DNA of 57,336 nucleotides, the filler included, from an uncultured Clostridia bacterium (GTDB taxonomy: Bacteria; Aerophobota; Aerophobia; Aerophobales; B3-G15), in assembly GCA_964482715.1 (NCBI GenBank). It is 8 parts of 8 records of this genome, joined end to end, with 100 filler letters (N's around TTAATTAATTAA, not from the genome) between each part and the next. Parts side by side here need not be neighbours in the genome. Positions count along the whole stretch, not along the records: positions 53,346 to 57,336 come from CAYZYX010000054.1; 7 more parts are not named here. One strand, given 5' to 3'. The position numbers and the translations under genes were made by a program. Positions 2,103-57,336 of this stretch are shown piece after piece. How positions within the stretch are numbered: position 1 is the first letter of the stretch; every line of letters begins with the position of its first letter. A model generated the notes under the pieces. It searched no databases. It saw only the letters and a program-made list of their open reading frames with translations, and was not told the origin of the DNA.

Positions 2103-3041
2103 TTATGTCCCGCTTATACTTCTTTTGAAGAAGGTTTTAAAATAAGCTATGGCAAAAATCATCATTATTACAGTCATTATAACTCCAAAAGTGGCTCCAT
2201 AGCCTATTTCGTAATTGACAAAACTTTCAAAATATACTTTTGTCCCGAGTACATGGGTGAAATTTCCCGGCCCACCACGTGTGGTAAGCCAGACATAGAC
2301 AAAATTATTGAATGTCCAGATAGTAATCATGAAGGTGATGATAGTTATTACAGGTCTGAGAAGGGGTAAAGTTATATGAATAAGTTCATGTCTCCAGCTG
2401 GCTCCATCAATTCTTGCTACTTCGTATAGTTCCGGTGGAATGGACTGGAGTCCGGCAAGAAAGGTAACAACGGTAAAAGGCAGCTCTCTCCAGACAATTA
2501 TCAAGATAATAGAAAGCCACACAAAGGAAGTATCGGTCAAAAATGATATAGGCTGGCGGATAAGTCCTAATCTTTGAAAGATAAGATTAACAGCCCCATA
2601 TCTACTATGAAGCATCCATTTCCAGATAGTCACCGCAACAACAGGTGGTACTCCCCAGGGGGCAAATATCAAAATACGCGCTGGCCCAGCCAGATGCCAT
2701 TTTTTTAAGGGATACGAGTTTAAAAGCAATGCCAGGATAAAACCAAGAATCAGTCTTAATCCAACTGTAGCCAGCGTAAGCCACAACGCGGTGTTTTTTA
2801 AAGCATTGTAAAATTCAGAATCCTTTGCTAACTTTATAAAATTAGCCAGGCCAACAAATTTTCCTCCACCTCCAGCAGTTTGGAAAAGACTGATTTTATG
2901 GAGGCTGAGCTGTATGTTGTATATAGAAGGGATAAAGAAGAAAAAGATGAGGAGGGCCAGGGCGGGTAAGATAAAACTAAATCCACGAATCGTAATTTTG
3001 CTAAATGTGCCTCTACTTTTCTTTATTTTTACCTCACCCAC
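2103..3041 (-). CDS. carbohydrate ABC transporter permease (MalF-like)
   Basis: FVGLANF, LAGLQSIPPELYEVARIDGAS, LTTRGGP. Confidence 0.93.
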   Translation of the reverse strand: MGEVKIKKSRGTFSKITIRGFSFILPALALLIFFFFIPSIYNIQLSLHKISLFQTAGGGGKFVGLANFIKLAKDSEFYNALKNTALWLTLATVGLRLILGFILALLLNSYPLKKWHLAGPARILIFAPWGVPPVVAVTIWKWMLHSRYGAVNLIFQRLGLIRQPISFLTDTSFVWLSIILIIVWRELPFTVVTFLAGLQSIPPELYEVARIDGASWRHELIHITLPLLRPVITIITFMITIWTFNNFVYVWLTTRGGPGNFTHVLGTKVYFESFVNYEIGYGATFGVIMTVIMMIFAIAYFKTFFKRSISGT

Positions 3042-3060
3042 CTATGGCCCTTTATCTACT

Positions 3061-4383
3061 CTAAGATTCTTTAAGAGCTTCCTCCAGTGCTTTCCTGATC
3101 TTGGATATAAGCTCTTTACTGGCTTCTTCAATGGATTTTTGGCCGGAATAAACCGCTGCAAATTCCCTGTTAGTTAAAGCCCACATAGTCTGGACTCTCA
3201 CAGGTGAGATGATATAGGTGTAAAAAGTCTGAGCTTGAGGGATAAGCTTTACGTAACCTTCGTATTCGGGTCCATATTTAATCTTTTTTAATAGAGTTTT
3301 CTGGGCAGAAAACTGTTGTCTGTAGTATGTTTCAAATACATATTCTGAACACATCCATTTTAACAGATCCCAGGCTTCTTTTATGTGCTTGGTATTTTTA
3401 TTTATAGCCAGAGTCCGTCCACCTAAGTGGGTTCGTCTGGTTACTCTTCCTGCGGGAACCTGTGCAGAGAATAAAGGTGCCTCTGGGTTAGCATTCATCG
3501 CTGCTCGGAATGATGCAGGAGGCATAAATCCCATAGCGAAGTCGCCCTTGGCGAGTCCATATATTAGTTCAGGATCACCCCAGGAATCCACAGCAATTAG
3601 TGAACGCGGAGTTATACCTTCTTCAAAGAAACTGTTAAAATAACGCATCGTTTCCGCTATAGCCCCCGCATCTACACCGATTTGCCACCCCCCTTCTGAA
3701 CTTTGTTTTATGAATGTGTATCCGTTACTCCATATAAAGTAATTCACCAGGAACCACATCCCACCAGTTGATCCGCTTCCAGCAGGAAAGGCAAAGCCGT
3801 ACTGATCAATTACTCCATCTCCATCACGATCCTTGGTCAACTTACCAGCTACTTCTTTGAAATGTTCCCAGGAGTCATCAGGAAAAGGGGCAATACCTGC
3901 TTCTTCAAAGAAATCCTTTCGGTATATCATGGCAAAGGTATCTGTTGTCCAGGGAATACCATAAATTCCCTCATCCAGTATACCTAATTCTACAGCTACA
4001 AAATCTTCTATACCATAGGGGAGTGGATATTGCTTAATGAGAGGGTTTAATTTTACTAATGTTCCAGCTTTGGCCAGATCACGTGTCCAGACAAAGGCAA
4101 GTTGCAAGACATCAGGTCCAGTTCCAACTCCCGCTTCCCGAATGAATTGATTGAGGGCGTCTGACCAGGGAACTGATTCGTACTTTACTTTGATGTTAGG
4201 GTGGTTACGGTCAAATTCTGCTACAGCCTGAGGTAAACCTGCAGCATCAGCAGGAGGATCATTTTGTCGGAAAATGAGGGTAATTTTTTCTTGTGTTAAT
4301 CCCACACCACCAACCAAAAGAGCCAACATCAAAACAAAAAGAAAAAACGCTATTTTTTGCCTCAACTTACCTCCTATCTTCAT
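3061..4383 (-). CDS. sugar ABC transporter substrate-binding protein
   Basis: Signal peptide, HPNIKV, GPDV, YRKDFFEEAG, DGDGVIDQYGF; upstream of two permeases. Confidence 0.92.
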   Translation of the reverse strand: MKIGGKLRQKIAFFLFVLMLALLVGGVGLTQEKITLIFRQNDPPADAAGLPQAVAEFDRNHPNIKVKYESVPWSDALNQFIREAGVGTGPDVLQLAFVWTRDLAKAGTLVKLNPLIKQYPLPYGIEDFVAVELGILDEGIYGIPWTTDTFAMIYRKDFFEEAGIAPFPDDSWEHFKEVAGKLTKDRDGDGVIDQYGFAFPAGSGSTGGMWFLVNYFIWSNGYTFIKQSSEGGWQIGVDAGAIAETMRYFNSFFEEGITPRSLIAVDSWGDPELIYGLAKGDFAMGFMPPASFRAAMNANPEAPLFSAQVPAGRVTRRTHLGGRTLAINKNTKHIKEAWDLLKWMCSEYVFETYYRQQFSAQKTLLKKIKYGPEYEGYVKLIPQAQTFYTYIISPVRVQTMWALTNREFAAVYSGQKSIEEASKELISKIRKALEEALKES

Positions 4384-10003: not shown

Positions 10004-10103
10004 NNNNNNNNNNNNNNNNNNNNNNNNNNNNNNNNNNNNNNNNNNNNTTAATTAATTAANNNNNNNNNNNNNNNNNNNNNNNNNNNNNNNNNNNNNNNNN
10101 NNN
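10004..10103. other. artificial contig linker
   Basis: N44-TTAATTAATTAA-N44, giving stops in all six frames. Confidence 0.98.
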
Positions 10104-47674: not shown

Positions 47675-48082
47675 ACCTGCTATGAAGGTGTATCTTCAGA
47701 AGATACTGAGTCAACCACCATTCGCTCAGCTCCCCAGCTTACCCTGACCAAATCAGATTCCCCAGACCCGGTTCAGGCAGGATCATCTCTTACCTACAGT
47801 TTAACCTACTCCAACCAGGGAAATGGCAATGCCACTTCCGTTACCCTTGTGGATAATCTTCCCCAGGAGGTAGATTACCTATCAAGCACCCCTTCTGGAA
47901 ACTATGATGAGCAAACTCACAGCTTAACCTGGGATATTGGAACTTTATCTCCGGGAGAAGAGGAAACTGTAACCGTAAATGTTCTTGTCCACTCACCCCT
48001 TGCCAGTGGAACAACCATCACCAACTCTGCCAGCATAACCTGCTATGAAGGTGTATCTTCTGAAGATAGTGAATCTACAACA
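47675..48082 (+). repeat. 363-bp (121-aa) tandem intragenic repeat unit
   Basis: ACCTGCTATGAAGGTGTATCTTC at 47675 and 48038; 47732-47786 is identical to the reverse complement of 53346-53400. Confidence 0.85.
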
Positions 48083-49186
48083 GTTACAGGAGCTCCTCAT
48101 CTGGAAATTTCCCTTAGCGCCGACAAAACCCTGGTGAAGACCTGTGACATAGTCACCTATAGGATAACTTACGGAAATGTGGGTGATCAGGATGCCACCG
48201 ACGTTGTTATCCATCTGGATATTCCTCCCTATGCCACTTACGTGCCGGGAAGTGGTGGTGATAAGGCAGTCTTAAGTAATAATGGAAGAACTATAACCTG
48301 GAAGCTGGGTTCTCTGAAAGCAAGAACAACAAACAAAATATTAAACTTCAAACTTCAAATTAATGAAGTAATTCCTGTAGGTATCACCGAACTTTCTACT
48401 TACGCCACTATCCAGTGTAAGGAAATAGATTCTGCAGATAGCAATGAAGTTACACTGCGCACGGTGGTTCCCTGTCTTAGTATCATTAAGATATCAAACA
48501 GGAGAGAGGTGGAACTGGGAGATTTCTTAACTTACACTATAAGGGTTGGAAATATAAGTTTAGATGACGAGATTACAGATCTAAAAATCACCGATATATT
48601 ACCCCGGGGATTTAAGTATGTTGAGGGAAGTACCCGGGTAAACGGGGAAGAATTTTCTGACCCTGAAAAAGGTGAGGGAGGCAAGAGAATCTGGAAAATA
48701 GATTCCCTATCACCTGGGTCTACGCTTGATCTTGCCTACGAGACTGTGGTTTGTGCCGGTGCCAAAATAGGAGAAAATATAAATAGTGCCAGGGTTGAAG
48801 GGCTAATTTCTGTTCCCGGTGAACCAGCTGTTTCCATATCAGCAGGTCCCGCTGTGGCAATTGTCAAAGTGGTAAGAGGAATCTTTAGTGACAGAGGTAG
48901 AATAATTGGAAAAGTATTCATAGATTCCAATCAAAATGGTATTCAGGATAAGGGTGAGGAGGGATTTGGAGGTATAACCTTAATTCTGGAAGATGGGACC
49001 CAGGTTATCACTGACGCTGACGGGATGTTTTCTATCCCGGCTCTTTCTCCGGGTGATCATCTCCTGAGCATTGATGTTGCTACTTTACCGGCCGATATAA
49101 AAGTTCTATCACCAAAATCCCAGTATGTCTATGTCCCTGCAGGAGCTACCGTGAAGGTCAACTTCACTGTGGTCAAAAAGAAATAA
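47675..49186 (+). CDS. C-terminal part of a large DUF11-repeat surface protein ending in an SdrD-B/Cna-B-like domain
   Basis: Open from contig start; repeated K......V..G..LTY.(I/L)...N.G...A..V...D.LP...Y; GKVFID.N.NG.QD.GE.G, TD.DG.FS. Confidence 0.88.
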   Translation, partial: TCYEGVSSEDTESTTIRSAPQLTLTKSDSPDPVQAGSSLTYSLTYSNQGNGNATSVTLVDNLPQEVDYLSSTPSGNYDEQTHSLTWDIGTLSPGEEETVTVNVLVHSPLASGTTITNSASITCYEGVSSEDSESTTVTGAPHLEISLSADKTLVKTCDIVTYRITYGNVGDQDATDVVIHLDIPPYATYVPGSGGDKAVLSNNGRTITWKLGSLKARTTNKILNFKLQINEVIPVGITELSTYATIQCKEIDSADSNEVTLRTVVPCLSIIKISNRREVELGDFLTYTIRVGNISLDDEITDLKITDILPRGFKYVEGSTRVNGEEFSDPEKGEGGKRIWKIDSLSPGSTLDLAYETVVCAGAKIGENINSARVEGLISVPGEPAVSISAGPAVAIVKVVRGIFSDRGRIIGKVFIDSNQNGIQDKGEEGFGGITLILEDGTQVITDADGMFSIPALSPGDHLLSIDVATLPADIKVLSPKSQYVYVPAGATVKVNFTVVKKK

Positions 49187-49288
49187 CCGTTATTCTTTTT
49201 CCCTGTTCCATTAGAAATTGCCCTCCATTTTTTCAACACTTTACCTTTGAGGAAAATCTTGTATCATTATAAACCAAAAAGGTGTAAA

Positions 49289-51166
49289 ATGAAGCAGAGG
49301 GTTTTTTTACTCCTCGGATTGGTTGGTGCCTATTTTATTTTTATTTCGACTTGCTGGGCCGGGAATGTGGCTGGGCCACCTTCAATAGAGGAAGTAATTG
49401 TTATATCAAAGTCAGATTCAAGTTCTGTACCGGATGATCAGAGTAAACTTGTGCGATATGGGGAGAATGTGACTCTTTATGCAACTGTAAAAAGCGAAAA
49501 TAGCTACTATCTTGGTTATACAGGGTCTCGTCTTCCGGACAGGGTAAAAATAAGGGGTAAAATATATTCTATTGAAAACGGTCTTCTCAAAAGGTGGAAA
49601 AAAGACTGGGAACCTCTTAAAATAAATTGGTTCAAAATAATGCCCCGTCCACAGCCTTCCTATGCGCCAGGTGAATACAAGTGGTATTCCAATGTGATTA
49701 CCGAGGGTGAATTTGAAGGAGGCTGGAGAGGATTTGATATAATTGAATATGAACAGTTTCCACTATCCCGGGAAGGCTGGACTTGTAAGCCAGAAAGAAA
49801 AGTAGGAACGGTGAGATTTAGAGCAGAAGTCATCTACAAAGGAAAGGTTTTTTCTTCACCTGGTAAACCTGATCCAGATCATCCAAGCGGTATCTCAGCC
49901 GAGGATTACGATAAAGGTATAAAGGATACAGTCCACCGAATAAGCCGTCTTTCCAATCATCCCAATCCTCTGATAAGATATGTGGAGGCATTAAAAGGAG
50001 TTCCCTGGTGCTGGGGAGTGGACTACCGGGATCCTCCAAAAAATACACCTTCCCGGCATCAAGCTGATCTTTCCAATCCAGTTGCTATTGAATGTTCAGA
50101 TCTTGTCATATCTGCTTTGAGAGCCATGGGAAATAAAAATCTTGTCTATACTTCAGCTCAAGATCTTGTAAAGGGAAGATATACACTTCCTGTTGGTAAA
50201 AATGAAGTTTATAGCCTTCAGCGCATCAGTTTATTTAAAAACTGGATTCCCAGGGGGATCCTTTGGTTTGATCACAAATTTTATATTTTTGGAAATAAAA
50301 AAATTCAGATAAGAGATGAAACGTTTTTGAAGCTTCTCAGGGAGATTAAAATTGAAGATTCCCGCTATGAAATTGTGGATATTGCTCTATCTCAAAAAGG
50401 TGAAATTTACTCTATCTTACAAAAAGATTTGGACAGGATTATCTGTCTGATAAGAGAAGGGAAAGTAGAGGAGATTTTTAAACCCGAGATTGAAAAAAGG
50501 ATAAAATTAAAGGGGACAGAATATTCCTGTAAGATTAGCATAAATCCAGGTAGTTTGGATGTTGATTCTGGAAAATTTTATCTTCTCGAATCTGATACAA
50601 TTCATGTATTTTCTATTGAGGGAAGATATTTAAGTTCTATTCTACTTGAGGGACTTTATGAAAATTATATTCCCACCGGACCTTTCTCTTTTAAAAAAGG
50701 ACTGTTTTATGTTCCCGTTGATAACAAGAGAATTGTTGTTTATAATGCCATCGGTAAGTTGGTTAAAAAACTAAATATGCAGGAAGATTTTATACAGGCT
50801 ATAGCGGTTCAGGAAGATAAGATCGCAGTTCTTTCCCTTTTTCCCTCCAGAATTCAGCTTTACAATCTTGATGGCTCATTTTTATGGGATTACAGTGACA
50901 GATGGCTTAATCAACAGGGTAAAGAGGTGAAAATAAGGATAGGTTCAAACAAGGATGATTTGCAGCTGGGTGATTTGATCATAACCATTGATCCAAGTTA
51001 TCACACCTTGCTACTTTACGAGGACAATGGGAATGGTTTTTTTGACAGTAAGGACAAGGTTATCTGTGCCGGGCACAAAGGGGTGGAAATAAGAGAAGCC
51101 AGTTATTTTGAGGGCAGAAAATTTGTGCTGAGGAAACTTAAACCCCAGATAAAAATTTCTCCTTGA
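49289..51166 (+). CDS. secreted protein with NlpC/P60-like catalytic motifs and an inserted beta-propeller
   Basis: Signal peptide; GVPWCWG...ECSDLV; propeller-like I.V(F/Y)...G..L repeats; LQLGDLI...HTLLLY. Confidence 0.6.
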   Translation: MKQRVFLLLGLVGAYFIFISTCWAGNVAGPPSIEEVIVISKSDSSSVPDDQSKLVRYGENVTLYATVKSENSYYLGYTGSRLPDRVKIRGKIYSIENGLLKRWKKDWEPLKINWFKIMPRPQPSYAPGEYKWYSNVITEGEFEGGWRGFDIIEYEQFPLSREGWTCKPERKVGTVRFRAEVIYKGKVFSSPGKPDPDHPSGISAEDYDKGIKDTVHRISRLSNHPNPLIRYVEALKGVPWCWGVDYRDPPKNTPSRHQADLSNPVAIECSDLVISALRAMGNKNLVYTSAQDLVKGRYTLPVGKNEVYSLQRISLFKNWIPRGILWFDHKFYIFGNKKIQIRDETFLKLLREIKIEDSRYEIVDIALSQKGEIYSILQKDLDRIICLIREGKVEEIFKPEIEKRIKLKGTEYSCKISINPGSLDVDSGKFYLLESDTIHVFSIEGRYLSSILLEGLYENYIPTGPFSFKKGLFYVPVDNKRIVVYNAIGKLVKKLNMQEDFIQAIAVQEDKIAVLSLFPSRIQLYNLDGSFLWDYSDRWLNQQGKEVKIRIGSNKDDLQLGDLIITIDPSYHTLLLYEDNGNGFFDSKDKVICAGHKGVEIREASYFEGRKFVLRKLKPQIKISP

Positions 51167-51205
51167 TACATTTTTTAAATAGATTTGAAAAGAGGTGATT
51201 CAACA

Positions 51206-51622
51206 ATGAGCAAAAGGGAATTTCTCTATGTAATTATGGGATTTTTTATTTTGCTTAATTTTTTGAGTTTTGCTTTTGCAGAGGAACAATGTGAAAATCA
51301 AACTTCCCGGGAAGAGGTTTCCATGGAAGTTAAAGTAAATATTGTTTCTAAAGAAATAACCTTTTCTGAAAGGGTCTTTAAGGAGCTACAGAATATTGTT
51401 ACCGAAATGATAAAAACACACTTTCCTGTTGAGTACACAAAGAGTGGAAAAATAACTGCGGAGATAAAAGTCCTGGAAAGGACTGAAAATGGTTATCTCT
51501 GTGAAAGTATTATTGGATTTTTATATAAAGAGACTTTCACACTGGTTTTAGTTCGAGTTGAATTTGAATACATTCCGGCTCAGATAAAGAACGTAAAGAT
51601 TCAGCGTAACTATTCACCATAG
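51206..51622 (+). CDS. hypothetical secreted protein
   Basis: GAGGTGA RBS; signal peptide ending AFA. Confidence 0.7.
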   Translation: MSKREFLYVIMGFFILLNFLSFAFAEEQCENQTSREEVSMEVKVNIVSKEITFSERVFKELQNIVTEMIKTHFPVEYTKSGKITAEIKVLERTENGYLCESIIGFLYKETFTLVLVRVEFEYIPAQIKNVKIQRNYSP

Positions 51623-53245: not shown

Positions 53246-53345
53246 NNNNNNNNNNNNNNNNNNNNNNNNNNNNNNNNNNNNNNNNNNNNTTAATTAATTA
53301 ANNNNNNNNNNNNNNNNNNNNNNNNNNNNNNNNNNNNNNNNNNNN
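53246..53345. other. artificial contig linker
   Basis: N44-TTAATTAATTAA-N44. Confidence 0.98.
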
Positions 53346-53871
53346 ATGATCCTGCCTGAACCGGGTCTGGGGAATCTGATTTGGTCAGGGTAAGCTGGGG
53401 TTGACGAACCAGAATCCCGGTAGTCTCCGTACCCGTAATCAGAGGGCGGGTGGGTGACATCTCCAGATCCCAGACCTCAACATTATTACTTAAAGTCCCT
53501 TGAGCATTGCTTTTAACCCTGACAACCAATTCGGCTTCCCAGGTTTCACCTGGGTAAAGCCATATGTTACCATCCCATTCAACATAATGACCTGCCGCAT
53601 TGTAACTTCCCCCACTTACCCAATCAACCTGAGAATCCAGATAACTTCTCACCATTCCAGCATAGATTTGCTCGTCGCCTGCAGTAAAACTAATCGTATA
53701 GGTGAGCTGTCCCCCGGGAGATACTGGATCGGGATTATCGGTGATATTTAAAGTAATTGCCCAGAGCGGATTTGTGAAAAAAAATATACTGATAAAAACG
53801 ATAACAATAAACCCTGCAATCAACCACCACTTTGAAATTTTCTTCAGGTTATCTATGGAAGATTGAACCAT
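53346..53871 (-). CDS. N-terminal part of the DUF11-repeat surface protein (contig-truncated)
   Basis: Signal peptide/TM; DNPDPVSPGGQLTYTI; ends in LTLTKSDSPDPVQAGS, identical to the repeat in contig 7. Confidence 0.88.
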
Positions 53872-53910
53872 ACCTTCTCCTTAAGATTTCATGAAATAAT
53901 AATGATATTT

Positions 53911-56541
53911 TTAGAGCTGACACACAATCCTCGCGTAAGGACCTCGAGCTTTCCATTCATTCTCTCCAGCCTTGAGGTCTTCGTATTCCTGAAAATTGTA
54001 GCCTGCTATCACCTTTAAATAGTGGGTTAACCTGTATCCTACCTCAACAGAAGTACTCACCCTTTGATCCTGTGTCTCAATGTGACGCAGGATCCGATAC
54101 TCCGTAGCAACATCGAACTTAAGTCCTATTTTATACGCCGGCCTTATCACAAACATATCACTGGTAGTTTCCTCTTCCTGTGAAAATCTTTTCTGTGCGT
54201 ACTTACCAAAAAGTGAGAGCCTATCTGTAAGATCATAAATTCCCTCACCTGCCAGAAGAATGGTAGTTGAAGTGGGAATATCGGATGTCCAATCCTCATC
54301 GGTTTTTATCTCACACTTTAAAAGCCCATTAAATCTGTCAAAATAAAGCGGTCTATAGGCAAGAGCAAGTGTGGTATCAGTTGAACGAGTCAACATTTTA
54401 TTAGTGTGGGCGTCCTGGTAACTCTCCTGAGAAAAACTCCCACTAAGAGTTATATTCTGGTGAGGTTTACCCTCGAGAGACAGGGATAAATTTTGAGATA
54501 TTTCGTCTTCACCTTGTTCCACTGTTGCTGCCAGAGAAGCAGAAAAATCAGGATGAGGAACATAATCTGTGGAAAAATCATATACGTAGGTTACTTCTGA
54601 GTCATTCTCAAATTTTTCCTTTCTCATCTCGTAGCCACCTTTTAAATTCAGCACCTCAAAAGGCGAATAATCAAATCCCAGGGAAAATGTATCAGAAATA
54701 GAATAATCAGAGTTATCAGTTAGCTGCAGCTCATACCCAATCTGGGTGGTCAGTTTTTCAGTAAGATCACCATCAAGAGTCAGCGTAGCTGTATGAATCC
54801 TGGTTTTCTCCATGTCCAGAAAAGACAGAGAGTCCTCGAAAGAGTAACTTCCCGCAATAGACCATCTCGCACCAAGCTGGGTTTCCCAGCCCAGAGTGGT
54901 CTTATGTGACTGACTTAGTTTATCAGACGTCTGTTTTTCTTTCTCCAGCTCGTATTCCTGTGTCAAAGAGGCTTCAATTAACTCGCCTATTTTAAAAGGT
55001 AAAGTAAGGGCCGCCCCTAACTTAGAGGTGTCACTACTGTAACCTGTATGATCAATGGAATCTTCCATGCTAAGTTCGAGAGTGTAGGTAAAACCACCTT
55101 TCTGGTTATCAATGGTTAAAGACAGTCCCTGATCGGTAGTATCGGTGACAGAAAAAATATCACCACCTTTTTCTTCTTTATTTTCCATATTAAAGCCAAG
55201 CGTTATTTCTGGAAATTTTTCACCTGCATAAATTAAACTAACCCCATAATTGGTGGTAATAGCTGTAGATCTTGCTGGATCACGAAGAACATTATCTCTT
55301 GATCTTTCAACTGTAGCCGAGAAATCAAAATCGGGGCTTAAACTGAAAGTGCCCTCCACTGTGTACTCTTCCACATCACTTTCCGTATCGGCAAAATCCA
55401 TAAAATTGGGTCTTACCTGTTTATAAGTACCCTTGAACTGGAGACCGGGCAAGGGAGTATAGTTCAAAACTAAACTACTGGCACTATCCTCCTCTTCCTG
55501 AGAGCTTCTGGCATATTCAGCTTCCACGCCAAGAAACTCACCCATGCCAATACTGGCATTAAAATCAGTCAGATTATGTGAACTATCGGAACGCTCATCC
55601 TGAAGATAGGTAATACCAAAGGAGGCATTTTCTCTAAGCTGCAAATTTATTTTTCCTCCAATTATTGTGGTTTTAGGAACTTCCTCAGGAGAAATGGCCT
55701 CATACTTTACCACAATAAAAATGGGATTTCCCTCCGGGGTCCAGCTTGGAACAAAACGTGAAAACATAATTCTTCCTCTTGTGTAATCAATAGTGTAATC
55801 AGTATCCTTAAACTGAGGAGTAGACTGCAAAACCTCATCCAGATCATCCTTGTCACGGACCTCAATGGTAACTCTTTCTGTTCCTTCTATTACTGGTTTG
55901 TGAGAAAGATAGTAGGGACCCCTGCTCCCCAGCCGACGGTTTCCATCGTCCTCACATATACCCCCCAAACATCTTTCTTCAGGAAACTCGTCCTCTGCAT
56001 AGATCTGATTGGTTCTGACATTAAAGAGAGTAAAACTGTGTTTTTCGCTTTCGTAGTGAATTTTAGCCCCTCTTAAAATCCGATCATAGGTGGCGAACTG
56101 AGTATCATTAAATTCAGTAGAATAACGTCCGTAAAGAAGGTAGGAGGTATCCTTCTGGAGCATAACGTAAAGTTTTCCCTGAGAACTTACATCAGTGGAA
56201 AGCTGACTTTTATCACCATAAACAGGATAGTATTTCTCAGGTTCAATGAATGCTTCTGCTGTTTCCAGAGCCGGCTTATCAGAATCAAAGGCCAGTTGAA
56301 GCAGATATTTTCCTTTTATTTTCCCTTTAAGGTAAAAAGCCACTCTTCCCTCAGAGTAAAATCCAGGAGTAAATTCATCTTCAGGTGCCGGTCCCTCTAT
56401 TTCAACATCACCCAGTTCCTGAACACCAAGACCCACCATAATAAGGTCGGTCCCTTCATCGGTAACAAGATGAATTATGCCCCATGCGGGAAAGTTGAGC
56501 AAGAAAAAAACCAGTATTGCAAATAAGAACTTCTTAGTCAT
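53911..56541 (-). CDS. large outer-membrane beta-barrel protein
   Basis: Signal peptide MTKKFLF...AWG; GRVAFYLKGKIKG, YYPVYGD.S, DYTIDY..GRI.F; about 550 aa of alternating amphipathic strands; acidic. Confidence 0.78.
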   Translation of the reverse strand: MTKKFLFAILVFFLLNFPAWGIIHLVTDEGTDLIMVGLGVQELGDVEIEGPAPEDEFTPGFYSEGRVAFYLKGKIKGKYLLQLAFDSDKPALETAEAFIEPEKYYPVYGDKSQLSTDVSSQGKLYVMLQKDTSYLLYGRYSTEFNDTQFATYDRILRGAKIHYESEKHSFTLFNVRTNQIYAEDEFPEERCLGGICEDDGNRRLGSRGPYYLSHKPVIEGTERVTIEVRDKDDLDEVLQSTPQFKDTDYTIDYTRGRIMFSRFVPSWTPEGNPIFIVVKYEAISPEEVPKTTIIGGKINLQLRENASFGITYLQDERSDSSHNLTDFNASIGMGEFLGVEAEYARSSQEEEDSASSLVLNYTPLPGLQFKGTYKQVRPNFMDFADTESDVEEYTVEGTFSLSPDFDFSATVERSRDNVLRDPARSTAITTNYGVSLIYAGEKFPEITLGFNMENKEEKGGDIFSVTDTTDQGLSLTIDNQKGGFTYTLELSMEDSIDHTGYSSDTSKLGAALTLPFKIGELIEASLTQEYELEKEKQTSDKLSQSHKTTLGWETQLGARWSIAGSYSFEDSLSFLDMEKTRIHTATLTLDGDLTEKLTTQIGYELQLTDNSDYSISDTFSLGFDYSPFEVLNLKGGYEMRKEKFENDSEVTYVYDFSTDYVPHPDFSASLAATVEQGEDEISQNLSLSLEGKPHQNITLSGSFSQESYQDAHTNKMLTRSTDTTLALAYRPLYFDRFNGLLKCEIKTDEDWTSDIPTSTTILLAGEGIYDLTDRLSLFGKYAQKRFSQEEETTSDMFVIRPAYKIGLKFDVATEYRILRHIETQDQRVSTSVEVGYRLTHYLKVIAGYNFQEYEDLKAGENEWKARGPYARIVCQL

Positions 56542-56606
56542 TCTTTTACACAGAGTCTCCTGAGTTTTTCTTAACCACACACAAAAACTTTCCCAAGGTC
56601 TTAAAA

Positions 56607-56915
56607 CTAATCATTTTCCGAAGGAGGCTCGGGTGGCTCTCCTAAGTCAGGCTCTGGTTTAGCTCCACCACCTCCCCCTCCACCAAAGCATCCAGATGAG
56701 ATTGCAGGAATTAAACTTACCAGAACTCCAAGAGGTCCTGCCACAAGGTATGCTCCTACCACAAGTGTGGCATAAGAGCCTATCATGAGATATCTTTTCT
56801 CATGATCCTGAAAAGTAAAAGCAGGTGATAAGGAAAAGGTGATAAGGAAAATTAAGGATAAGAGGATCATAAAAATTCCCCAGCCTCTTTTTGATAGTCT
56901 TCTTCTAAATACCAC
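56607..56915 (-). CDS. small membrane protein with a Gly/Pro-rich tail
   Basis: AAGGAGG RBS and GTG start; hydrophobic segments; SSGCFGGGGGGGAKPEPDLGEPPEPP. Confidence 0.7.
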   Translation of the reverse strand: MVFRRRLSKRGWGIFMILLSLIFLITFSLSPAFTFQDHEKRYLMIGSYATLVVGAYLVAGPLGVLVSLIPAISSGCFGGGGGGGAKPEPDLGEPPEPPSEND

Positions 56916-56926
56916 TTAAACCTCCT

Positions 56927-57336
56927 TTAGTCTATAAGGGCAATTTTACCCTTTTTAACAACAACCTCTTTAGAGGCCTTTGCCTTTATAAGCATAAGAT
57001 ATATTCCACGGGCTACTTTTTCTCCGCGATTGTTTGTCAAATCCCACACCTCTTCATTCTGACCTTCAGGACAGAGCTTTTCCTGGACAAGGGTTCTGAC
57101 AAGTTCTCCCGAGATGGTATAAATCTTAATGGTAACTTGAGCTTCTTTTCCAAGATAAAAAAGAATGGTTGTTCTATCACTATGGACGGGATTGGGGTAG
57201 TTTCCAACATCTTTCAGGGTAAGCTTTTTATAAGAGGACTCTTTCTTTGTAGCTACAATCTTAAACCTTGCCTTTTCCTCCTGCATGGCATATGAGTAAG
57301 AGGAAACCTCTCTCATATTGGCAAGGATATTTTCAT
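56927..57336 (-). CDS. C-terminus of a protein ending in a FlgD-Ig / T9SS type A CTD-like domain (starts beyond window)
   Basis: NYPNP....T.I.F.L.....V.IKIYT.SG.LV..L......G.....WD..N..G..V..GIY, terminal K.ALID. Confidence 0.82.
   Translation of the reverse strand, partial: ENILANMREVSSYSYAMQEEKARFKIVATKKESSYKKLTLKDVGNYPNPVHSDRTTILFYLGKEAQVTIKIYTISGELVRTLVQEKLCPEGQNEEVWDLTNNRGEKVARGIYLMLIKAKASKEVVVKKGKIALID

Follow-up and report, generated by a model that had tools for sequence, protein, structure and literature searches.

A predicted giant beta-barrel protein distantly related to SprA and its conserved association with DUF11/SdrD_B fiber proteins

In type 9 secretion, the C-terminal sorting domain (CTD) of a substrate binds inside the cavity of SprA, a barrel of 36 strands, and the part of the literature drawn on here describes both the secretion pathway and SprA as specific to the Bacteroidota or to the Fibrobacteres-Chlorobi-Bacteroidetes (FCB) group (PMC10994853). 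SprA has been termed the largest known single-chain barrel (bioRxiv 10.64898/2026.03.07.710327), and three 38-stranded barrels have been predicted in Deinococcus radiodurans (PMC9388160). A survey of DUF11, since renamed CLIPPER, assigns this domain to the stalks of surface fibrillar adhesins, an OmpA-anchored Acinetobacter adhesin among them, and never mentions a barrel (bioRxiv 10.1101/2025.04.25.650565). The present analysis concerns a gene for an 876-residue predicted barrel protein from an uncultured Clostridia bacterium (GTDB lineage Aerophobota, Aerophobia, Aerophobales, B3-G15; assembly GCA_964482715.1), which stands next to a gene for a DUF11 protein and shares with SprA a module that suggests distant common ancestry.

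The analyzed stretch of 57,336 nucleotides (hereafter the window) consists of eight contigs of a binned genome, joined through seven artificial linkers, each composed of an N run, TTAATTAATTAA and a second N run, at positions 10048, 18555, 27019, 34298, 41021, 47619 and 53290. Since the contigs are joined in this way, gene neighborhood across a linker point is no evidence of linkage, and the finding is therefore that of one 4-kb contig (53346-57336; CAYZYX010000054.1), which is separated by the last linker (53246..53345, no strand) from the preceding contig with a further DUF11 protein at 47675-49186. Four genes lie on the 4-kb contig, all on the minus strand, and encode the tail of a CTD protein, a 102-residue protein, the barrel and a DUF11 protein. 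The intergenic gaps measure 11, 65 (26 if the barrel starts at its GTG) and 39 bases, confirming the tight co-orientation described in the initial annotation of this DNA. The barrel gene (56541..53911, minus strand) encodes 876 residues from its ATG, or 889 from an upstream GTG, and begins with a signal-peptide-like N-terminus.

An AlphaFold2 model of the barrel was built with an alignment of 48 full-length relatives (A1, with the window protein as reference row) and reached a pLDDT of 80.6 and a pTM of 0.65. The model contains seven or eight long strands in residues 32-186, a small inserted beta domain at about 187-272 and 33 consecutive long strands in residues 291-875, all with short loops, and thus predicts a barrel of about 40 strands (38-42). 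A loop at residues 90-116 that holds the YYPVYGD motif (residues 104-110; 56212..56232, minus strand), the most conserved of the family, is modeled with low confidence, the motif itself having a pLDDT below 50 in the monomer. SlpA of D. radiodurans (PDB 7ZGX, 8AE1) headed the Foldseek matches (E 1.2e-8, TMq 0.34), ahead of LptD, MtrB and SprA. VIA-align placed SprA (8gl6_A) first, with Z 17.4, a root-mean-square deviation of 12.2 and 614 aligned residues spanning positions 30 to 876 of the model, and SprA also gave the longest structural alignment among the PDB matches (614-631 residues); FimD and TonB-dependent transporters were found among the generic structural matches. The expectation of a giant barrel that is neither a TonB receptor nor an ordinary porin is thus borne out at the level of the model. 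In agreement with this, the barrel showed no match to Plug, TonB_dep_Rec, Usher, POTRA or ShlB families at E<=0.1 in Pfam and NCBIfam, nor to PapD-like chaperone, Autotransporter or SLH families in Pfam. Porin_4 was the sole Pfam family over its cut-off (residues 304-429 of the 889-residue GTG-start open reading frame, ORF), and neither database holds a model covering the conserved N-terminal module.

Relatives of the barrel are numerous. Of 7987 candidates scored in a word-indexed search, 585 were relatives at E<=0.001. The nearest one with a name, from Candidatus Aerophobetes, is 57% identical, full-length matches extend from there down to about 22% identity, and one relative bears the database name “TonB-dependent receptor.” When 1.84 billion representatives were scanned in full with HMMER, 2598 matched at E<=0.001, of which 2006 remained at 1e-10 and 684 at 1e-30; a search of the ESM Atlas gave unnamed clusters only, and a metagenome scan gave no more than two loci. 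In alignment A1, eight positions (D86, P101, Y105, P106, Y108, G109, D110 and S112) are invariant in all 48 sequences, so that the family is marked by an invariant P..YYPVYGD.S motif together with a conserved GR.AFYLKGK hairpin; the window protein carries this GR.AFYLKGK...YYPVYGD.S module and aligns with the family over its full length. At least 600 stretches of the genome collection contain YYPVYGDxS, and 599 were confirmed as barrel relatives, from which 80 loci were kept for the counts of gene neighborhoods and fusions given below. Cultured carriers among them are Geomonas limicola (L004), Psychrobacter immobilis DSM 7229 (L055), Leucothrix arctica (L033) and Rivihabitans pingtungensis (L031); bins of Omnitrophota, Planctomycetota, Nitrospirota and others are represented too, and the family is also present in Pseudomonadota and Desulfobacterota. 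The window barrel is consequently a stand-alone member of a large, unnamed and widespread family of giant barrels, and literature searches on DUF11 barrels, giant barrels, Aerophobetes type IX secretion and SprA-like proteins found no publication on it.

The conserved companion of the barrel is a DUF11/SdrD_B-like protein. With few exceptions, the barrel module in the 80 loci forms the C-terminal end of a longer protein (1200-4231 residues), and 54 barrel ORFs bear DUF11/SdrD_B-like domains in their own N-terminal extension. In 15 further loci, a DUF11/SdrD_B-like ORF adjoins on the same strand, which brings the fused or adjacent cases to 69 of 80; the other 11 show neither arrangement, some of them being cut by contig ends. 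The statement made in the initial annotation, namely that the GRxAFYLKGK/YYPVYGD module is usually fused to DUF11/OmpA giants and is a separate gene here, therefore holds (the giants being DUF11/SdrD_B proteins, sometimes with OmpA), as does the conservation of the barrel-plus-DUF11 neighborhood across phyla. Fused or adjacent partners reach 2500-4200 residues (adjacent giants 2584-3321) and carry adhesin-type domains such as CshA-repeat, Big_9 and cadherin-like domains. Psychrobacter and Geomonas show DUF11, SdrD_B and barrel in this order, to which the Geomonas protein (L004) adds a C-terminal OmpA domain. In Rivihabitans (L031), a 2584-residue DUF7933/SdrD_B/DUF11 protein abuts an OmpA-plus-barrel protein with the OmpA domain at its N-terminus, and in Leucothrix, CshA-repeat and DUF11-OmpA proteins lie ahead of the barrel. 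In one bin (L016), the barrel stands alone with 949 residues, and the DUF11 gene that overlaps it encodes 3321 residues or more. Among Aerophobota, a DUF11 gene lies downstream of the barrel in all six loci with downstream sequence (the window, L001, L087, L090, L100 and L101; L090 was judged by eye from the motif). In the window, this gene starts 39 bases 3' of the barrel gene and encodes the N-terminal 175 residues of the fiber protein (53871..53346, minus strand), comprising a signal peptide and a first DUF11/CLIPPER domain (Pfam DUF11 23.4 bits, just below the cut-off of 24.6), before it is truncated at the contig end.

A separate observation comes from the genome of the closest relative (G001). 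Upstream of its paralogous barrel locus, a 1000-residue protein (L087:3487-6489) carries two SdrD_B domains, the last of them 19 residues from its end, along with a Porin_4-like stretch and a domain that resembles the copper amine oxidase N-terminus; it may be another partner of the barrel.

The missing part of the fiber gene can probably be found within the window. The end of the barrel contig (53346-53400, minus strand) is identical over 55 nt to positions 47732-47786 (plus strand) of the preceding contig, an overlap of the kind left by a k-mer assembler at a repeat, and across it the reading frame runs into a protein with three DUF11 domains and an SdrD_B-like domain that ends at 49186. The coding sequence at 47675..49186 (plus strand) comprises the C-terminal 503 residues of this protein (Pfam DUF11 E 1.3e-42 in three stretches, SdrD_B 2.3e-8), and partner proteins elsewhere likewise end shortly after an SdrD_B-like domain, for example with 28 residues left in L010 and 10 in L101. 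On the same contig, a 145-residue secreted protein (51185-51622, plus strand), for which no family match was found, shares homology (E 8e-17) with the N-terminal portion of a 375-residue protein (L001:532-1659) located upstream of the L001 barrel locus. Judging by these sequences, the DUF11 gene downstream of the barrel probably continues into 47675-49186.

The C-terminal 104 residues of this DUF11 protein form an SdrD_B-like beta-sandwich (48872..49183, plus strand), which was co-folded with barrel residues 26-876 and alignment A1, a pairing that the initial annotation had put forward. Three runs gave ipSAE values of 0.75, 0.73 and 0.75, and all three controls gave 0.00; the pLDDT of the partner was 82, and at least 88% of contacts agreed between runs. 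Of 80 solved complexes, 58 attain the mark for docking, against 2 of 110 pairs that do not belong together; these rates are approximate here, as alignment A1, made for this analysis, was used. The predicted interface comprises alternate residues of the strands at 34-40, 66-70, 84-88, 730-740, 766-800, 812-818 and 871-876, a pattern that places these contacts on a single side of the sheet, in the simplest reading that of the lumen, as well as residues 106-119, which cover most of the invariant YYPVYGD motif. Contacts of this one small domain extend to the first three barrel strands as well as to about the last eight, and this fits a closed seam. The SdrD_B-like C-terminal domain is accordingly predicted to dock on the barrel.

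The link to SprA was exposed, as it seems, by intermediates within the Aerophobota. Among 30 genomes from the closest relative's phylum, a TIGR04189 search detected proteins of 1500-1660 residues in 21 (loci L103-L117, genomes G003-G030); in some cases (G009, G011, G028), a PorV-family gene lies no more than 10 kb away. Three that were scanned whole scored 135.7-185.8 bits, which is under the 200-bit equivalog cut-off, and by their sequences these proteins are true but short SprA homologues. A hidden Markov model of the barrel family matched 14 of 15 such homologues at the same two places (full-sequence E 3e-13 to 3.5e-5, Z=15), and HHalign comparison of A1 with an alignment of the 15 (A2) gave a probability of 97.3% and E 2.7e-11 over 128 columns, pairing barrel residues 205-350 with residues 420-570 of the SprA homologues. 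The aligned stretch shares GS.GPYYL, GSE.V, DY.IDY..G.I.F, V.YE, GG. and GGT.L...R. Two weaker alignments are collinear with it, one at 69% and E 4.4e-5 and one at 13% and E 0.002 that extends over 477 columns to both C-termini. In the barrel, the homologous module (residues 205-350; 55492..55929, minus strand) consists of the inserted beta domain (GSRGPYYL...GTERV...DYTIDYTRGRIMF) and the barrel strands that follow. Searched on its own, the window segment 190-330 (141 residues) has TIGR04189 as its sole NCBIfam match (22.7 bits, E 1.2e-5, model positions 619-686), and Pfam SprA_N was not matched on this segment at E<=10. In the reverse direction, the A2 profile, searched over five SprA-less genomes, found nothing but barrel-family genes (three matches, E 1.1e-12 to 2.1e-5), and a barrel paralogue of G029 surfaced in the SprA genome search (E 9.3e-6). 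The segment which the initial annotation had likened to SprA (DTDYTIDYTRGRIMF...VVKYE...GGK...ITYLQDER) is thus, by profile alignment, TIGR04189 match and reciprocal search, homologous to a SprA segment. On these sequence comparisons, the barrel is a distant relative of SprA with at least one common module of about 140 residues; it is no orthologue of SprA.

Within this module, the inserted domain at residues of about 205-272 (55726-55929) and the SprA homologues of L107 and L117 show recurrent weak matches to a phage tail-tube model (NF052337, E 0.0005-0.1), and the DY.IDY..G.I.F domain may be common to phage tail proteins as well.

Genome-wide counts were made in G001 (1.8 Mb) and in the 30 genomes of its phylum, all of which are incomplete bins. 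In the two loci L001 (57% identity to the window barrel) and L090 (54%), a CTD protein, a PorV-family gene, the barrel and a DUF11 gene follow one another; the PorV-family gene of L001 scores 175 bits against NF033709 (cut-off 90), and in L090 the PorV and barrel ORFs overlap. L100 has a CTD clostripain, the barrel and a DUF11 gene, L087, the G001 paralogue, has a CTD subtilase divergent from the barrel, and L101 has no CTD gene. No PorV-family gene lies next to the barrel in the other 79 of the 80 genome loci once L001 is set aside, and neither a PorV-family nor a CTD gene was found beside the barrel in the 78 loci from outside the Aerophobota. G001 has five CTD hits and three PorV-family genes over cut-off. 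In G001 and G017, both incomplete bins, no SprA orthologue was detected by TIGR04189 or by the phylum's own SprA profile; G001 also gave no match to GldM, a match to PorU only via the CTD part and a match to GldK only via the part resembling sulfatase-modifying enzymes. PorV-family genes occur in 28 of the 30 genomes, and barrel-family matches at E<=1e-10 in six, being strong in G001 (two copies), G017, G029 and G030, of which G029 and G030 have both the barrel and a short SprA homologue and G001 and G017 the barrel only. GldM and Peptidase_C25 (PorU) were found in none of the 30 genomes, but the search controls were silent everywhere, so this is no evidence of absence. As short SprA homologues are present in 21 of the 30 genomes, CTD cargo in Aerophobota need not use the barrel. 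The tests proposed in the initial annotation all pointed toward its idea of a minimal two-partner translocon, which stands in part: the giant barrel, the SprA module, the conserved pairing with DUF11 and the predicted docking speak for it, whereas the link to CTD and PorV is confined to Aerophobota. The conserved unit is the barrel plus a DUF11/SdrD_B fiber rather than the barrel plus a CTD protein.

Two further observations concern type 9 components as such. On contig C85 of G001 (L085, 4368-8435), three genes in a row encode a CTD protein with Ig domains, a CTD subtilase and a PorV-family protein with no giant barrel nearby, hence the pairing of CTD proteases with PorV exists independently of the barrel. 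The short SprA homologues and PorV-family genes of Aerophobota, taken together, resemble a reduced set of type-9-like components in a phylum beyond the FCB group.

The explanation favored here, held with slightly better than even confidence, is that the SprA-related giant barrel serves as conduit and anchor for a DUF11/CLIPPER surface fiber, with transport, surface exposure and the direction of threading as presumed features. In this model, the fiber protein would reach the periplasm through Sec, and its C-terminal SdrD_B-like sandwich would dock on the wall of the barrel where the first and last strands meet, next to the YYPVYGD loop, on a face taken to be that of the lumen. The DUF11 stalk would then pass through the wide pore and be displayed on the surface, so that the barrel would act both as conduit and as anchor. 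In most organisms, fiber and barrel form one polypeptide, whereas in the window and in some other cases they are the products of neighboring genes. The Aerophobota lineage of the window has the pair in one operon with a CTD-bearing protein, to which relatives add a PorV-family barrel; any role of the barrel in the export of CTD cargo is likewise presumptive.

Several results weigh against the conduit-and-anchor model. The strand count was read from the DSSP string of the model, which leaves closure, the size of the lumen and any lateral opening at the level of prediction, and the VIA Z score of 17.4 for SprA is in effect no higher than that of MtrB (17.1) or of TonB-dependent transporters (about 16); with these tied, structure alone says that the protein is a very large barrel and no more. 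The sequence homology to SprA spans only about 130-150 residues (205-350): the full barrel protein has no TIGR04189 match at E<=0.1 and fails the 200-bit cut-off by far, and the A1 profile searched against the PDB retrieved no SprA chain at E<=10, giving only weak matches to KdgM and an OmpA-like protein (YfiB). Among 12 corresponding segments from other phyla compared with NCBIfam, four gave weak TIGR04189 matches (E 0.0054-0.092) and eight none, and in view of the phage tail-tube matches, part of the SprA signal may come from a shared small domain. The 55-nt overlap could equally link two paralogous DUF11 genes. The score of the complex is the model's own confidence, and the predicted contact may have been learnt from fused homologues; in fused proteins, a median of 183 residues separates the SdrD_B-like domain from the point at which the stand-alone barrel starts, and this gap of about 180 residues means that the docking geometry may differ there. 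Finally, OmpA domains are fused on either side of the barrel, which places at least part of the extension in the periplasm.

A different view sees the barrel as a structural outer-membrane anchor or plugged porin similar to SlpA/OmpM, whose Ig-like and OmpA domains would be periplasmic or plug the lumen and tie the outer membrane to the wall. SlpA is the top Foldseek match (E 1.2e-8, TMq 0.34), the G001 paralogue has a weak Pfam SlpA_C match (E 9.6e-7, below cut-off), and Porin_4 is the one Pfam family over its cut-off; OmpA fusions occur C-terminally in Geomonas (L004) and N-terminally in Rivihabitans (L031), and the predicted docking would suit a plug no less than a threaded anchor, provided that the contacts lie on the lumen side. 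However, neither an SLH domain nor a coiled coil was found in the barrel, its partners of 2500-4200 residues carry adhesin-type domains, DUF11/CLIPPER is described as an extracellular stalk, and the homologous sequence is that of a translocon, SprA. A purely structural, periplasmic role is considered fairly unlikely, but it is the main rival of the conduit-and-anchor model. Least credible, and in fact very improbable, is that the barrel is an unannotated ordinary porin, TonB-dependent receptor, usher or two-partner-secretion transporter with neighbors by chance. The Porin_4 match, the one “TonB-dependent receptor” label and the generic structural similarity to TonB-dependent transporters and FimD would agree with such an identity, but Plug, TonB_dep_Rec, Usher, POTRA and ShlB all went unmatched in Pfam and NCBIfam, about 40 strands are predicted against the 16-26 of those families, and 69 of 80 loci show fusion or adjacency to DUF11/SdrD_B proteins.

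Alternatively, in Aerophobota lineages that lack a SprA orthologue, the barrel might be a minimal type-9-like translocon for the neighboring CTD protein, with PorV as carrier where present and the DUF11 protein as second cargo or scaffold, a role compatible with the conduit-and-anchor model. This would account for the order CTD, PorV, barrel and DUF11 in L001 and L090, for the CTD clostripain, barrel and DUF11 genes of L100 and for the CTD subtilase at L087, and it agrees with the five CTD hits and three PorV-family genes of G001 and with the failure of SprA profiles to find anything other than these barrels in G001 and G017, which show no SprA orthologue. On the other hand, 21 of 30 genomes have a real short SprA homologue (up to 185.8 bits) and G029 and G030 have both proteins; the genomes are incomplete bins, in which non-detection of SprA is no proof of absence; CTD and PorV genes pair without a barrel on C85 of G001; and neither CTD nor PorV stands beside the barrel in the 78 non-Aerophobota loci, nor PorV in the window. 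Such a role for CTD cargo, even as an addition to that of conduit and anchor, is regarded as distinctly unlikely.

A broader proposal would combine elements of both: the family could be a compact type 9 translocon relative of ancestral type, without the PorKLMN motor, which in many phyla exports and holds its own fused or neighboring DUF11 fiber through a pore of about 40 strands, by means of a CTD-like C-terminal beta-sandwich, and which, in SprA-less Aerophobota (the window's lineage included) and together with PorV, would be the sole exit for CTD-tagged proteases. This is offered as a speculation of rather low probability. If it were true, the family would represent a distinct secretion and surface-display system linking autotransporter-like logic with type 9 secretion.

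The remaining genes of the contig can be described briefly. The CTD protein (57334..56927, minus strand; feature span 56927..57336) is cut at its 5' end by the end of the window and is represented by its C-terminal 135 residues, which match TIGR04183 (31.9 bits, cut-off 23; NCBIfam), Por_Secre_tail PF18962 (29.9 bits, cut-off 27) and FlgD_ig (30.4 bits; both Pfam). The first gene thus ends, as had been noted, in a FlgD-Ig-like CTD resembling T9SS type A, T9SS denoting the type 9 secretion system. A 99%-identical metagenome contig (L089) lengthens the protein to 205 residues, and the relatives L001 and L100 have a clostripain (Peptidase_C11) with a CTD at this position. The 102-residue protein (56915..56607, minus strand) starts at a GTG preceded by an AAGGAGG ribosome-binding site and is hydrophobic, with two hydrophobic segments, a GGGGGG run and a Pro/Glu-rich tail; no family match below E 0.07 was obtained in Pfam and NCBIfam. 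Its gene is otherwise present solely in L089 (99% identical), and the protein is lineage-specific. At the same position, L001 and L090 have the PorV-family gene and L100 a gap of 156 bases between called ORFs. Derivation of the 102-residue ORF from a decayed PorV gene was considered and rejected, the N-termini being weakly but not significantly alike (BLASTP E 0.26; best tblastn E 0.069), and neither a PorV gene nor a remnant of one was found in the window. On the preceding contig, the DUF11/SdrD_B gene is directly followed by a gene for a 639-residue signal-peptide protein (49247-51166, plus strand) with no family over cut-off, which shows no similarity to the 385-residue neighbor in L001 and was dismissed as its counterpart.

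What this window contributes is the tested homology to SprA, the operon context with CTD and PorV genes and the predicted docking on the YYPVYGD loop. A SprA-related barrel that reaches a similar or larger strand number in only about 870 residues proves to be widespread, with 2006 cluster representatives and occurrence in cultured genera. It offers an answer to a question that has not been addressed, namely how CLIPPER/DUF11 adhesins of Gram-negative bacteria cross the outer membrane and stay on it.

Compared with known systems, the barrel differs from TonB-dependent receptors in having neither a Plug nor the 22-strand TonB_dep_Rec families at E<=0.1. Among the SlpA/OmpM connectors of outer membrane and cell wall, SlpA is its best Foldseek match; both are very large barrels, and some family members carry a peptidoglycan-binding OmpA domain, but the barrel lacks an SLH domain and coiled coil, TMq is only 0.34 and SlpA has 28-30 strands. 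Chaperone-usher pili (FimD/PapC) likewise combine a large outer-membrane barrel with a fiber of Ig-like units; however, Usher and PapD-like matches are absent, about 40 strands are predicted instead of 24, and the units are DUF11/CLIPPER domains instead of pilins. The resemblance to type V secretion (Va, Vb, Ve) is one of logic only, a repeat passenger and a barrel being encoded as one polypeptide or by two adjacent genes, with the order of N-terminal passenger and C-terminal barrel as in type Va, whereas the barrel has about 40 strands against 12-16 (16 in the two-partner Omp85/ShlB) and no Autotransporter, POTRA or ShlB match.

The closest comparison is with SprA/Sov (Flavobacterium johnsoniae SprA, PDB 6H3I, 8GL6; TIGR04189). 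Both are single-chain giant barrels of comparable strand number that share a homologous module of about 130-150 residues and two weaker collinear alignments; in Aerophobota, moreover, the barrel adjoins a CTD protein and a PorV-family gene, and the C-terminal beta-sandwich of its partner is predicted to lie on the barrel wall, probably inside the lumen. In contrast to SprA, with its approximately 2400 residues, the barrel comprises 876 residues with short loops and thus no large extracellular cap, its family extends to many phyla in which PorV or CTD neighbors are lacking, and its partner is a DUF11/SdrD_B fiber, often fused N-terminally, instead of a CTD-tagged cargo.

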